A program made the translations under genes and the position numbers. Below, piece after piece: positions 14,838-25,300 of a stretch of 37,895 nucleotides of DNA. The notes under the pieces are model-generated. The model did no database searches. It was given only the letters and a program-made list of their open reading frames with translations, and was not told the origin of the DNA. Location of the stretch: the UHGV virus genome UHGV-0162601; one strand, given 5' to 3'. This DNA comes from a virus. Positions within the stretch are counted from its first letter, which is position 1. Each line of letters begins with the position of its first letter.

Positions 14838-15620
14838 TTGGATATTTCAGATACTCCTTATTATCAAAAATTGATAGCTTCTTCAAAATTAATCGGTGAA
14901 ACCATTGCTCCTTCTCTAGATGTCGTTAACGCTATGCAGCCTGCGATAGAACAAGCTAAAAAATTAATTGCAATTCAAGATACTTTTATAGCTTCGCAAG
15001 CAATACTCAATGATTCTCTCATTCAAATTGTCGAGAAACGTAACAAATCTATTGCTAATATGATTCCTCCTTCTTTGTTCGCAATACAGAAACAATTAGA
15101 ATCTCCAAGTTTTAATATTGCTAAAAAAATGGCAGCTACTATGCCAAAACCTTATTTTTCTGATATCTCTAAAATCACAGAAAAATTTGCCGTTGACATG
15201 TCTAAGTACGACTTCAGAATAGGGGTAGCTACCCAAGAATTAGAAAAAGCATTTTCTTCCGAACCGGAAGTTAGTACAAAAAATCTACTTTTTAAAGACA
15301 CTTCTAATCCATCTGATGAGTTTGAGGCTAAGTTTTTTGATATCCTTAATGAGCAAAGGAAAGTCCTTGATGATTCTATAAAGCTTTTTGAAGAAATAAA
15401 TACAGCCAAGAACAAAGATATAACTAATGAACCATCTGAAAAACAACAAGCTTCACCTGCTTTCTACAAAGATAAAATGTGGTATTTAGAGCAAACTGGG
15501 GCAGCTTTGATAGGACTAGTAGTAACCGAAATTGTAAATATAACTATTGGAGTAGATCCTAACAATACAATTTCATTAGCTTTATTTTTGCGTTATTTGT
15601 TACAATTTTTAATTAATTAG
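14838..15620 (+). CDS. hypothetical protein with C-terminal TM helix, opposite-strand moron in the early region
   Basis: 260 aa, TTG start after AAAGGTGG, own promoter and terminator. Confidence 0.55.
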   Translation: MDISDTPYYQKLIASSKLIGETIAPSLDVVNAMQPAIEQAKKLIAIQDTFIASQAILNDSLIQIVEKRNKSIANMIPPSLFAIQKQLESPSFNIAKKMAATMPKPYFSDISKITEKFAVDMSKYDFRIGVATQELEKAFSSEPEVSTKNLLFKDTSNPSDEFEAKFFDILNEQRKVLDDSIKLFEEINTAKNKDITNEPSEKQQASPAFYKDKMWYLEQTGAALIGLVVTEIVNITIGVDPNNTISLALFLRYLLQFLIN

Positions 15621-15623
15621 GTT

Positions 15624-15650
15624 AAGTCAGTCCCTCCCGACTGGCTTTTT
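15624..15650 (+). terminator. rho-independent terminator (aagtcagtc-cctccc-gactggctt, then T5)
   Basis: Stem plus T-run directly after the stop of 14838..15620. Confidence 0.55.
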
Positions 15651-15797
15651 CGCTCTATATTCAGCTTCATCAAGCCCCATAAAAATCCAAACCATGTAAA
15701 CGATCGTTCCTATCAACGCTTGTTTGCTTCCCCAAAGTCCTAAAGCGTAGATGATTAGCGGTGCGCTGAATACTAATGCTCTGTTGAATTTACCCAT
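15627..15797 (-). CDS. 56-aa small membrane protein MGKFNRALVFSAPLIIYALGLWGSKQALIGTIVYMVWIFMGLDEAEYRAKKPVGRD
   Basis: RBS AAGGAGG 7 nt before the ATG. Two hydrophobic segments. Last gene of the early leftward operon. Confidence 0.45.
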   Translation of the reverse strand: MGKFNRALVFSAPLIIYALGLWGSKQALIGTIVYMVWIFMGLDEAEYRAKKPVGRD

Positions 15798-15801
15798 CCG
15801 C

Positions 15802-16122
15802 TTACCTCCTTAATATTTCCGAAAAATTTGTTTCTAAAAATTCAAGTGTTTTACTTCTTAAAAATAGATATGTGTCTCTTCCTTCAACTGGATAATAGAC
15901 AAATCCATTTTTGTTTTTTTCGATATCGATAATATTTCTATATCTTGGGTTTTTTAAAACTCTAGAAGTAAACCAATCATATTTTCTGTTAATCCGTTCT
16001 AGCACTTCTGGTAACGTCATCCATCTACCAGTATCATCAGCTTTTTTTAACTCCTCGTAATCCACTTGGGAGATAATTACATAGCCTTCTGGAATTGGGA
16101 TTTTTGCTTCTAGATATTGCAT
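15802..16122 (-). CDS. hypothetical early protein (possible excisionase-like/DUF771-like)
   Basis: 106 aa, second gene of the cro operon. Confidence 0.45.
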   Translation of the reverse strand: MQYLEAKIPIPEGYVIISQVDYEELKKADDTGRWMTLPEVLERINRKYDWFTSRVLKNPRYRNIIDIEKNKNGFVYYPVEGRDTYLFLRSKTLEFLETNFSEILRR

Positions 16123-16134
16123 TAGCTGTTCCTC

Positions 16135-16320
16135 CTATTGAATACCTAATATTTTTTTTACAGTTTCTATGTGTTCTTGAGCTTTTTTTCCATCACGATT
16201 GCCGTTTAGAATATCTGATAAATAAGCTCCTGAAATACCAACAAGCGCAGCTAGTTCTTTGAAAGTCATTCTTCTTTTTCTCATCTCTGCCCGAATTTTT
16301 AAGTCTAAATTCTCAGACAT
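16135..16320 (-). CDS. cro: Cro-like HTH_XRE regulator
   Basis: 61 aa with an HTH (MTFKELAALVGISGAYLSDILNG). Divergent from the repressor. Confidence 0.75.
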   Translation of the reverse strand: MSENLDLKIRAEMRKRRMTFKELAALVGISGAYLSDILNGNRDGKKAQEHIETVKKILGIQ

Positions 16321-16344
16321 AAAAACAGCTCCTTTCTAAAAAAT

Positions 16345-16600
16345 GATTTGTAAGCTAAAAAATTAGCTAAATCATTGACACCTATTAGCTTTTAAGCTAT
16401 TATAAATACATAGTTAAATAAGCCTTATAAAAAGCCTCTAAAATAACATTTCTAAGTTTGGCGACCGAGAGAATGTTTTTAATTAATAGATATTTTTGTT
16501 GCTCTTATTTAGCTAACAATTTAGCTTACAAATTAAATATACTAGCTTAAAAGCTAATTGTCAACTAAAAATATAACTTTTAAGCTATTTATTTTCTTTT
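16345..16600. promoter_or_regulatory. genetic-switch region: 4 palindromic operators (AGCTAA-N4-TTAGCT at 16353 and 16511; TAGCTT-N2-AAGCTA at 16386 and 16543) and two face-to-face promoters with perfect TTGACA -35 boxes
   Basis: Plus promoter TTGACA 16375-80 / TATTAT 16398-403. Minus promoter TTGACA (complement of 16559-64) / TATATT (complement of 16536-41). Each spacer contains an operator. Confidence 0.55.
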
Positions 16601-16622
16601 CAGCTTTGAAAGGTTGATAATA

Positions 16623-16997
16623 ATGAGTTTAGTTACTAAGATTAAAGAATTAGCAGATGAAAAGCATGTGACTATAGCAGAAGTAGAAAGACAGGTAGGC
16701 ATTTCTAATGGACAAATAAGAAGATGGGATAAAGCCTCACCAAAATCTGAGAACTTAAAGAAAGTTGCTGATTATTTTGGGGTCACAACTGATTATTTAT
16801 TGGGAAATAATAATGTTCCCAAATGGGCTACAAAAGAGGAAGTGGTTGAACTTGATAAACTACTAGACTCAAATGTTAATATGTCTTATGGTGGGGAAAC
16901 ATTGACACCCGAACAAATACAGCGCGTAAAAGATATCCTTATAGCGACTTTCTGGGATATTGTGAAAGAAGACAAAGAAAAAGGCAAAAAGATGTGA
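16623..16997 (+). CDS. ImmR/CI-like repressor (HTH_XRE, no S24 peptidase domain)
   Basis: HTH IAEVERQVGISNGQIRRWDKA. Followed by the ImmA-type protease gene. Confidence 0.8.
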   Translation: MSLVTKIKELADEKHVTIAEVERQVGISNGQIRRWDKASPKSENLKKVADYFGVTTDYLLGNNNVPKWATKEEVVELDKLLDSNVNMSYGGETLTPEQIQRVKDILIATFWDIVKEDKEKGKKM

Positions 16998-17001
16998 GCT
17001 T

Positions 17002-17430
17002 ATGGAGATGGATACGATTAATTTAGTCGAGGAGTTGAAGCGGAATTACCAGTCCGCTAATCCTTTTTATATTTGTGAAAAGATGGGCATTAAAATTCAA
17101 TACGTTCCTTTTATCGAAAATCCCAAAGGGCAGTTTCAAGAAATTAGAGATCGTGCAATAATCTTTTTAAATGATGAACTGCGAGACTCTGAGGAAAGAT
17201 TCTACATTTGCGCTCACGAATTAGGTCACGCTATTTTTCATCGTGGCTTATCCAGTTACTATGTATCGACAAGAACATCTAGAAGCAAATCTGAAAGCGA
17301 AGCTAATTGTTTTGCTGCTAATCTCATTGTTTCTCTATACAAAGAAGACAACGATCAATATCCTAAACGAATTGAGGAATTAAAAAATCTTTACGGACTT
17401 CCAGAAAGCGCTTATCGTTTTCTTATATAA
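17002..17430 (+). CDS. ImmA/IrrE-family metallopeptidase (anti-repressor protease)
   Basis: HEXXH motif HELGHAIFH. Paired with the XRE repressor. Confidence 0.8.
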   Translation: MEMDTINLVEELKRNYQSANPFYICEKMGIKIQYVPFIENPKGQFQEIRDRAIIFLNDELRDSEERFYICAHELGHAIFHRGLSSYYVSTRTSRSKSESEANCFAANLIVSLYKEDNDQYPKRIEELKNLYGLPESAYRFLI

Positions 17431-17513
17431 AAAAGCCCGTGCTGCAACACGGACTCTTTCCTCATATATGAGCTTCTACAAAAAAATCATATCATAGAAA
17501 TGAGGAAGAAAAA

Positions 17514-24282: not shown

Positions 24283-25300
24283 ATCGTTGCGGAATATTTA
24301 AATACCAGCGTTTATCATGAAAATCTTGTGCTCCGCCTTTAGTGTTCCCTTCTGGATCATTCGTTGCACGCATCATTACATAGACTTTCTTATTAGAAAA
24401 ATTACGCATATTGAAAGATACATGATAACCAACGTTTCCAGAAGTATTATAAGCTTGATTTACATCTGGTCTATAAATTCCATCAGCTCTTACTCGAGCT
24501 AATTCTTTCCCAGTATTGTAGTCCATAATGAAAATATACTCGTATTTATAGTTAGCGATGTGCCATCCAGCGACGTGTAAGTTCGCATTTTCGATTTCTC
24601 CAAACTGATCAATGTGAGAATGGTTCGTTCCATCTGATAAAGTTGGATTTGCTGCACCTGCTCGGGTTGGATCAATGACAGGCTTGTTCTCAGAAGTCGT
24701 TGGGTTTTCGTCTGTAAATCCATGAGCTAAATCGTAAGCCAGTTTTTCCTTACTTACACCCATTTCTGATAAGTATCCATACGGATCAGTGTGATCGCCC
24801 CAAATGTTTTGAGTTACCCATAAATGTGATTTGATTCCTGGTTGATTATACGGTGTGTCTAATGTAAGTGGAATACCGTATTTCTTTGCTGAATCTCTAG
24901 CCAATTCAACGTATGCTTTATAGTTTTTTTCAAAAGTTGCTTTATCATGTGTGTGTTGTAACTCAATCTGCACAGGACTATTGGCATTAGCATATGAACC
25001 AGCACCGTACTGTACATAACCAGGTTGTCCGACTTGGTAAACAATTCCACCGTCTCCCACAATGTAAGCAGTATAAGCACTAGTCCATGAACGTTGCATA
25101 TACTGCGCTTCATTGCGTCCTGTTGCTGTTTCGTTAGCTGTTTCATGCAGTAAAATATACTGATTATTCGCTACTTGAGAGCTACCTTCATTTACACCTA
25201 AATTAAATTCATTGTTAATCGTATAGGCAAACCCATTAATTGGCAATAAAAAAAGAGCCGTTAATAGGCTCATCGCAGTAATAGTAATTTTCTTTCTCAT
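24281..25300 (-). CDS. endolysin: N-acetylmuramoyl-L-alanine amidase (Amidase_2/PGRP-like) with N-terminal Sec signal peptide and a C-terminal wall-binding domain
   Basis: MRKKITITAMSLLTALFLLPINGFAY signal-like N-terminus. Amidase_2-like YILLHETANE... Last gene of the lysis cassette. Confidence 0.75.
   Translation of the reverse strand: MRKKITITAMSLLTALFLLPINGFAYTINNEFNLGVNEGSSQVANNQYILLHETANETATGRNEAQYMQRSWTSAYTAYIVGDGGIVYQVGQPGYVQYGAGSYANANSPVQIELQHTHDKATFEKNYKAYVELARDSAKKYGIPLTLDTPYNQPGIKSHLWVTQNIWGDHTDPYGYLSEMGVSKEKLAYDLAHGFTDENPTTSENKPVIDPTRAGAANPTLSDGTNHSHIDQFGEIENANLHVAGWHIANYKYEYIFIMDYNTGKELARVRADGIYRPDVNQAYNTSGNVGYHVSFNMRNFSNKKVYVMMRATNDPEGNTKGGAQDFHDKRWYLNIPQR

Follow-up and report, generated by a model that had tools for sequence, protein, structure and literature searches.

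Predicted face-to-face promoters and proposed separate operators for repressor and Cro in the probable immunity region of a temperate siphovirus

The DNA analysed here, a stretch of 37,895 nucleotides from UHGV virus genome UHGV-0162601 (hereafter the window), contains a 302-bp gap (16321–16622) between a Cro-like gene on the minus strand and a repressor gene on the plus strand. The Cro-like gene (16135–16320) encodes a 61-aa helix-turn-helix protein matching Pfam HTH_26/HTH_3 and opens the leftward early-lytic operon; homologues occupy the equivalent position in 21 related loci. Leftward of it lie a DUF771 gene and, farther out, a Rha/ORF6C antirepressor gene. The repressor gene (16623–16997) encodes 124 aa, with an N-terminal HTH_3 domain (Pfam, E 1e-7, residues 7–59) and a C-terminal domain. 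It is adjoined by a co-directional gene (17002–17430, plus strand) for an ImmA/IrrE-type M78 metallopeptidase of 142 aa, which matches Peptidase_M78 (PF06114, E 3e-13) and carries an HELGH motif in its translation. Three accessory genes and then a tyrosine integrase gene follow to the right. Pfam gave no Peptidase_S24 match in the repressor, the locus having the separate M78 peptidase gene instead, and a PDB sequence search returned no match for the repressor and one marginal match for Cro. The original prediction named this region a lysis-lysogeny switch, and the gene content agrees, with an HTH_3 repressor, M78 peptidase and integrase on the rightward side and an HTH protein, DUF771 and Rha/ORF6C on the leftward side. 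By their domain matches, these parts make up an ImmR/ImmA-type immunity module (XRE repressor plus M78 protease), and the best explanation for the region is that it controls immunity in a temperate siphovirus infecting Enterococcus or Listeria.

A wastewater contig that carries the label 'UNVERIFIED_ORG: Listeria phage LM 4-11-1' matches the switch region at 95% identity. This nearest phage record (OR846730; L002 in our locus set) thus bears a Listeria phage label under an UNVERIFIED_ORG flag, and most close relatives are enterococcal. A prophage of Ca. Enterococcus wittei encodes exactly this repressor (100% identity), which makes Enterococcus a possible true host. Within the leftward early operon, a 260-aa ORF without a Pfam match lies on the opposite strand (14838–15620, plus), sharing ~50 nt with the beginning of the Rha/ORF6C antirepressor gene; this may be a moron gene, or the ORF may be spurious.

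A promoter scan of 2 kb found only two sites above 9/12, Prep and Pcro, and they face each other across the gap. The rightward promoter of the repressor operon, Prep (16375–16403, plus strand), pairs TTGACA (16375–80) with TATTAT (16398–403), and the leftward early-lytic promoter, Pcro (16536–16564, minus strand), pairs TTGACA (complement of 16564–59) with TATATT (complement of 16541–36). Each has a 17-nt spacer and matches the sigma-A consensus at 11/12 positions. Prep adjoins cro and Pcro adjoins the repressor gene, ~55–60 bp in each case from the gene that the promoter points away from. For neither gene did the scan yield a gene-proximal promoter of at least 9/12 in a usable back-to-back position. 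With starts set ~7 nt past each -10, at ~16410 for Prep and ~16529 for Pcro, the predicted leaders measure 213 nt and 209 nt and would overlap by 120 nt (16410–16529). The scan therefore recovers the face-to-face TTGACA promoters that had been proposed, and the computed lengths agree with the proposed leaders of ~210 nt and overlap of ~120 nt.

Five palindromic sites of two classes accompany these promoters. The AGCT-N4-AGCT pattern occurs only twice in the window, at 16387–98 and 16544–55, each time inside a promoter spacer, in line with the expectation of one operator per spacer. Since 0.55 occurrences are expected and two or more arose in 9/100 shuffles, the count is weak alone, and placement is what counts. 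Extended by one flanking base per side, the two sites are an identical 14-mer, TAGCTTTTAAGCTA. The proposed repressor operator OR3 (16386–16399, TAGCTTTTAAGCTA) spans -24 to -11 in the Prep spacer, and the proposed repressor operator OR1 (16543–16556, TAGCTTAAAAGCTA, the OR3 14-mer read on the other strand) spans -27 to -14 in the Pcro spacer. A repeat finder added a third proposed repressor operator, OR2 (16575–16588, TAACTTTTAAGCTA), one mismatch from the N4 type and just upstream of the Pcro -35, at -59 to -46; relatives carry its equivalent as a locus-specific copy. The centres of OR1 and OR2 are separated by 32 bp, or roughly three helical turns, and 157 bp separate OR3 from OR1.

The second class, AGCT-N8-AGCT, occurs at 16353–68 and 16511–26, with one further, unrelated match at 24485 (0.59 expected; three reached in 2/100 shuffles). 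The proposed Cro operator OC1 (16510–16527, TAGCTAACAATTTAGCTT) covers +2 to +19 of Pcro and +101 to +118 of the rightward transcript. Its partner OC2 (16352–16369, AAGCTAAAAAATTAGCTA), 158 bp away, covers -58 to -41 of Prep and about +160 to +177 of the Pcro transcript. All four of the AGCT-core operators described earlier are present, but the total is five, OR2 having been overlooked. Both classes in the window phage share the hexamer TTAGCT/AAGCTA. A common AGCT core, the other element of that description, holds for this phage but not for its relatives, whose repressor sites lose AGCT while their Cro sites keep it; on these comparisons the common core appears to be particular to the window phage.

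Using the repressor as query and one genome per species, we collected 73 loci from Enterococcus, Bacillus-class genera, lactobacilli and Clostridia, and 75 loci were analysed. At a threshold of 9/12 or better, 61/75 loci carry both a plus-strand TTGACx-17-TAxxxT ~140–270 nt upstream of the repressor start and a minus-strand TTGACA-17-TAxxxT ~30–110 nt upstream of it. A face-to-face pair at 10/12 or better is present in 58 of the 75 loci and a back-to-back pair in none, counts that overstate independent events because the loci are related. Fifty dinucleotide shuffles gave a mean of 0.24 loci with a face-to-face pair. The predicted architecture is therefore conserved among relatives. Across the family the two -35 elements stand 105–198 bp apart, for a predicted overlap of 36–129 nt. 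The Pcro -35 is TTGACA in 51/61 loci, and Pcro is the promoter nearer consensus in 35 loci, as against 6 for Prep.

The same layout is found in phiFL1A (E. faecalis), phiETA2 (S. aureus; rightward promoter only 9/12), IPP14 and MM1 (S. pneumoniae), 315.1 (S. pyogenes), Listeria LP-101, Lactococcus TPW22 and Paenibacillus GIW2016. In family members the gap runs from ~200 to more than 400 bp and holds two consensus promoters; each stands beside the first gene of the other operon and is directed across the gap, and the window fits this description. The window also shares the family's locus-specific palindrome, which is repeated in the two spacers and once more ahead of the lytic -35. The intergenic DNA is unalignable between most groups and the geometry is nonetheless kept, which indicates selection.

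Relatives that differ in one regulator separate the two classes of site. Enterococcus lactis CCM 8412 (L007) has a Cro 100% identical to that of the window and a repressor identical to the window's from residue 63 on, save one substitution at residue 67. Its repressor HTH differs, reading NIPKNTIYQWK where the window has GISNGQIRRWD. At the positions of the three 14-bp sites, the DNA alignment shows CTAAT-N6-ATTAG instead; the 18-bp sites persist, and OC1 keeps 20/22 bases within an otherwise diverged stretch. Set against window 16300–16997, this locus looks like a natural mosaic, the HTH domain and its three operators having changed together, in which recombination may have swapped immunity specificity, and the HTH-domain exchange predicts that specificity is changed. 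Other HTH variants come with other palindromes at the same three places, for example EFGNGTIRKWD with TAGTC-N4-GACTA, and within the GISNGQIRRWD group the inner operator bases vary together with residues 36–44. Three further loci (L004–L006) keep the window HTH and the TAGCTTTTAAGCTA sites and have neither a Cro homologue nor 18-bp sites.

The same association emerges within loci. The Pcro spacer 14-mer matches the Prep spacer of its own locus at 10.8/14 positions and those of other loci at 9.0/14, a difference reached in 0/3000 permutations. Against its own upstream site the match is 11.25/14, compared with 9.28/14 for other loci (0/5000 permutations). A control region gave no signal in these permutation tests. 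A same-register comparison of the Prep and Pcro spacers also gave no signal, because the site sits 3 nt farther along in Prep, and a register-free comparison was therefore used.

The 18-bp class follows Cro. We scanned for AAGCTA-N6-TAGCTA, at 10/12 or better, between +1 and +25 of Pcro, downstream of the -10. The site is present in 20/20 loci with a Cro homologue and absent from 47/49 without one (Fisher 2e-15). One of the two exceptions, phiFL1A, has a Cro homologue farther downstream, and moving it changes the table to 21/0/1/47 (homologue with and without the site, then no homologue with and without it). The 18-bp sites accompany Cro homologues across repressor specificities and host genera. 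In loci with a Cro homologue, OC1 stands 6–8 bp from the Pcro -10 (8 bp in 14/16 loci). OC2 stands 4–7 or 15 bp from the Prep -35 in relatives, a difference of about one helical turn. OC1–OC2 spacings are mostly near whole helical turns, with exceptions at 12.76 and 14.57 turns, and many of these spacings are shared by descent.

Because the 14-bp sites covary with the repressor HTH and the 18-bp sites with the Cro family, we conclude that the 14-bp TAGC-N6-GCTA sites are in all likelihood repressor operators and the 18-bp AAGCTA-N6-TAGCTA sites Cro operators. The suggestion that two palindrome classes might distinguish repressor from Cro binding gains support from both lines of evidence, the HTH covariation seen in L007 and other loci and the association with Cro. 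One database record runs the other way: in BCJA1c (AY616446; L001), two protein_bind features labelled 'repressor' (2658–2673 and 2825–2840) coincide with the 18-bp class. That label is apparently a prediction, and on the comparisons above it is probably a mis-assignment.

A group of Enterococcus spp. loci (L008, L010–L021, L024) keeps the face-to-face promoters and the TAGCTTTTAAGCTA sites and has no Cro homologue. Only half of an 18-bp site is left in this group, for example at L015 1500–2000. In L015 the leader is followed by only a 9-codon ORF and then a 140-aa protein with no Pfam match. These may be satellites or defective elements.

Between the two predicted starts, the zone that would be transcribed on both strands (16410–16529, 120 nt) holds a conserved block, CATAGTTAAATAAGCC (16409–24), and a central motif, TTTGGCGACCG (16457–67). 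In alignments, relatives share a block CATAGCTAAATAAGACTT..AAAGCCT directly past the Prep -10. The block CATAG(C/T)TAAATAAG(A/C)C (window 16409–16424) is more conserved than the operators and persists in loci with a different repressor HTH or without a Cro homologue. The block and the flank of the right Cro site mirror each other, which makes the overlap an imperfect dyad over its whole length. At the centre, relatives share a small hairpin, CGYTCCCCARCG, whose stem shows CG to UA covariation. A motif survey found the central motif, in the form CGYTCCCCARCG, its reverse complement CGTTGGGGAACG or a TTGGCG(A/G) variant, at ~0.42–0.45 of the overlap in many otherwise unalignable loci from several genera. 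Its carriers include phiFL1A (L079), phiETA2 (L080), LP-101 (L083), GIW2016 (L085) and the Bacillus-group loci L022–L041. In Bacillus-group relatives, a small conserved hairpin flanked by A and T runs lies in the overlap dyad.

Folded as RNA, the two strands of the 120-nt overlap had non-significant z-scores (-1.55 and -0.57), and an Rfam scan of 15500–17500 at a permissive threshold returned sub-threshold noise only. With 17 sequences, RNAalifold predicted two short helices for the minus strand and left the plus strand unstructured; with 11, it found a weak long hairpin of -9.2 kcal/mol with two compensatory pairs only. A terminator scan found none in the gap, and the hairpins ahead of T-runs, with -3 to -6.5 kcal/mol, are so weak that we rejected a central bidirectional terminator. 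The conserved central dyad, with its weak hairpins and T-runs, could still attenuate read-through.

From the sequence features, their conservation and their covariation, we infer a switch, its start sites, protein binding, cooperativity, looping, interference and cleavage included, that is likely to combine face-to-face Prep and Pcro, separate repressor and Cro operators, and transcriptional interference. Prep would fire rightward across the gap into the repressor–protease–integrase operon, and Pcro leftward across it into cro and the early-lytic genes. Each RNA polymerase would run over the opposing promoter, and the two leaders would be complementary for ~120 nt. The repressor is expected to bind the three 14-bp TAGC-N6-GCTA palindromes. 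On OR1 and OR2, probably cooperatively, it would silence lytic transcription from Pcro, which should also relieve convergent interference on Prep. On OR3, in the Prep spacer, it would cap its own synthesis by negative autoregulation. OR3 and OR1 are the same 14-mer, and preferential repression of Pcro therefore rests wholly on the assumed cooperativity with OR2.

Cro would bind OC1, located over the Pcro start and ~100 nt into the repressor leader, and OC2, just upstream of the Prep -35. Since these sites bracket Prep, their positions would let Cro dampen its own promoter and either block Prep or loop it out. On induction, the ImmA-type protease would presumably cleave the repressor and free the stronger Pcro, which would then fire across Prep and suppress it. 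Cro on OC1 and OC2 would thereafter hinder the repressor operon by a loop or roadblock and moderate Pcro.

Four other readings bear on these data, and two of them accept the promoters as described and redistribute the sites. In one, both palindrome classes would belong to the repressor, which might occupy the 14-bp sites as a dimer and use a different binding mode on the 18-bp sites, leaving Cro to act elsewhere or through protein contacts only. The hexamer TTAGCT/AAGCTA, on which both classes are built in the window phage, would suit such dual binding, as would the BCJA1c record with its repressor label on 18-bp sites. Yet L007 exchanges the repressor HTH together with all three 14-bp sites while keeping the 18-bp sites, L004–L006 have the same HTH but neither a Cro homologue nor 18-bp sites, and the 18-bp site tracks the Cro family (21/0/1/47). 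We consider this reading improbable. Slightly less probable again is the reversed assignment, with the 18-bp sites as repressor operators and the 14-bp spacer palindromes as Cro operators. It draws on the GenBank annotation of BCJA1c and on the classic repressor position, covering the lytic promoter start, that OC1 occupies. Every covariation test, however, runs in the wrong direction for a reversal: a new repressor HTH brings new 14-bp sites even where Cro is 100% identical, and 18-bp sites occur only where there is a Cro homologue, across repressor specificities and host genera.

The remaining two concern the promoters and motifs themselves. The consensus promoters might mainly make short countertranscripts that end at the central dyad, and so be regulatory RNA genes instead of gene promoters, with the genes served by weak adjoining promoters. 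The imperfect dyad of the overlap, its small conserved hairpin and the flanking A and T runs of the Bacillus-group relatives would fit such an arrangement. Weighing against it are the weak hairpins before T-runs (-3 to -6.5 kcal/mol), the gap without a hit in the terminator scan, the folding z-scores of the window (-1.55 and -0.57), the lack of any gene-proximal promoter of at least 9/12 in a usable position, and the back-to-back pair found in 0/75 loci; we give it as small a chance as the reversed assignment. That the motifs are chance matches in AT-rich intergenic DNA would agree with the unremarkable window-wide count of AGCT-N4-AGCT (two or more in 9/100 shuffles). The position-specific conservation (58/75 loci against 0.24 in shuffles), the permutation tests and the Cro association table count as its refutation already, at the level of sequence comparison.

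Face-to-face promoters have a precedent in the coliphages 186 (pR/pL) and P2 (Pe/Pc), whose lytic and lysogenic promoters face each other between divergent operons. In these phages the lytic promoter is the stronger, and the repressor and the lytic regulator occupy separate sites. The 186 face-to-face switch is reportedly the subject of work by Callen et al. in 2004 (cited in PMC11318856). The overlap in 186 is 62 bp, compared with the 36–129 nt predicted for the window family. The likeness extends to the face-to-face promoters of the window by sequence and conservation only. A resemblance to 186 rather than lambda had been proposed: it holds for geometry and fails for homology, since the window regulators match HTH_3/HTH_26-type Pfam families only and have no homology to 186 CI/Apl or P2 C/Cox. 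Induction would also differ from 186 and P2, being presumed to proceed through the ImmA-type protease. Unlike lambda CI/Cro, the window has no back-to-back PR/PRM, and its two site classes track different proteins instead of forming a shared operator set; unlike the lambda repressor, its repressor has no C-terminal S24 (LexA-like) self-cleavage domain.

Closer relatives are found among phages of Gram-positive hosts. The cI/ImmA-like/ORF4 region of pneumococcal phage MM1 is said to have been studied by Obregon et al. in 2003 (FEMS Microbiol Lett 222:193, cited in PMC7600539). MM1 CI is a full-length homologue of the window repressor, with 34% identity, and an ImmA/IrrE peptidase gene stands next to it. 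In its 296-bp gap, TTGACA-17-TAAAAT adjoins cI and is aimed at ORF4, TTGACT-17-TAAAAT adjoins ORF4 and is aimed at cI, and a related palindromic sequence lies in both spacers, as in the window. The operator sequences differ from those of the window, and by tblastn ORF4 has no detectable relation to the window Cro. The MM1 GenBank record lists several alternative putative promoters, some of them gene-proximal. A review describes MM1 CI as repressing elongation of transcripts from the two promoters (PMC7600539).

Rap of Lactococcus phage TPW22 is 41% identical to the window repressor over its full length. Its record (AF066865, 1999) annotates -35/-10 elements face to face between orf6 and rap (plus 469–497, minus 641–613), which score 11/12 and 12/12 in our promoter scan. 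TPW22 differs in having no Cro homologue and no 18-bp site, and its operators are unannotated. In BCJA1c (Bacillus clarkii, AY616446) and phiFL1A (Enterococcus, GQ478081) the whole switch is homologous, and BCJA1c DNA is 67% identical across cro and the gap. Both phages share face-to-face promoters, two 18-bp sites and a Cro homologue with the window, and differ from it in that their spacer repressor operators have other sequences. In phiFL1A the Cro homologue, gp06, lies ~500 bp farther downstream behind inserted genes. There, gp04 and the oppositely oriented gp05 separate gp06 from the switch (L079 2485–3175), which implies either a much longer lytic leader or that the inserted genes are transcribed first.

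Homologous repressors also serve the other geometry. Cpg of Lactobacillus phage phig1e is 38% identical to the window repressor over 96% of its length, but its 166-bp gap is arranged back to back, with a minus-strand promoter (651–623) for cng and a plus-strand promoter (681–709) for cpg; homologous repressors therefore work in both layouts. Like the window, ICEBs1 of Bacillus subtilis has a repressor of the XRE type beside an M78 anti-repressor protease, together with an integrase and a small first gene that is oriented divergently. We examined a locus that we call ICEBs1-like and not ICEBs1, because the best match to the ImmR query was 97% identical and was identified by its immR–immA–int–xis context. 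Here a strong leftward promoter, TTGACT-17-TATAAT, adjoins xis, which makes the layout back to back, unlike that of the window. ICEBs1 itself is described as back to back (PMC11318856), and its ImmR is reported to bind six sites, spread over the two promoter regions (PMC8960796).

For two ImmR/ImmA-type Clostridium clostridioforme prophages, convergent promoters were predicted in silico in a 2024 paper that cites 186 (PMC11318856). Among the full texts that our search covered, this prediction and the review's statement on MM1 were the only relevant finds: none mapped convergent promoters experimentally in a phage switch of a Gram-positive host, and none dissected interference, or distinct operators for repressor and Cro, by experiment in this family. 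Face-to-face switches with homologous repressors are known from TPW22, MM1 and the C. clostridioforme prediction, and the kind is little studied. New here are the evidence of how widely the layout is conserved, a third proposed repressor site, and the assignment of operators to the two proteins.

A broader reading is possible, though we hold it only tentatively and regard it as rather doubtful: that a large class of Firmicutes prophage switches spans Staphylococcus, Streptococcus, Listeria, Enterococcus, Lactococcus, Bacillus, Paenibacillus and Clostridia, with convergent promoters and antisense leaders at the core of bistability, separate operators, and the central motif as an unrecognised control element. 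On this same tentative reading, the central motif, CGTTCCCCAACG (TTGGCGACCG in the window), would be an RNA hairpin or a host-factor site. Were the class real, the textbook picture of back-to-back CI/Cro would be unfit for many medically important Gram-positive prophages. Pathogens such as S. aureus, S. pneumoniae, S. pyogenes, Listeria and enterococci carry prophages of this type, whose induction moves toxin and resistance genes.

Should the convergent promoters run the switch, interference and antisense pairing would be part of the decision, and silencing the lytic promoter would indirectly activate the repressor promoter. Making such a phage lytic, or building an inducible system from it, would need edits unlike those for a lambda-style layout.

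A last, smaller observation concerns the repressor translation start region (16605–16625), which reads GAAAGG(T/C)TGA, a few bases, and the start codon. It is near-identical from Enterococcus to MM1 and TPW22 (L001, L015, L084, L086), between genes that are 34–41% identical.
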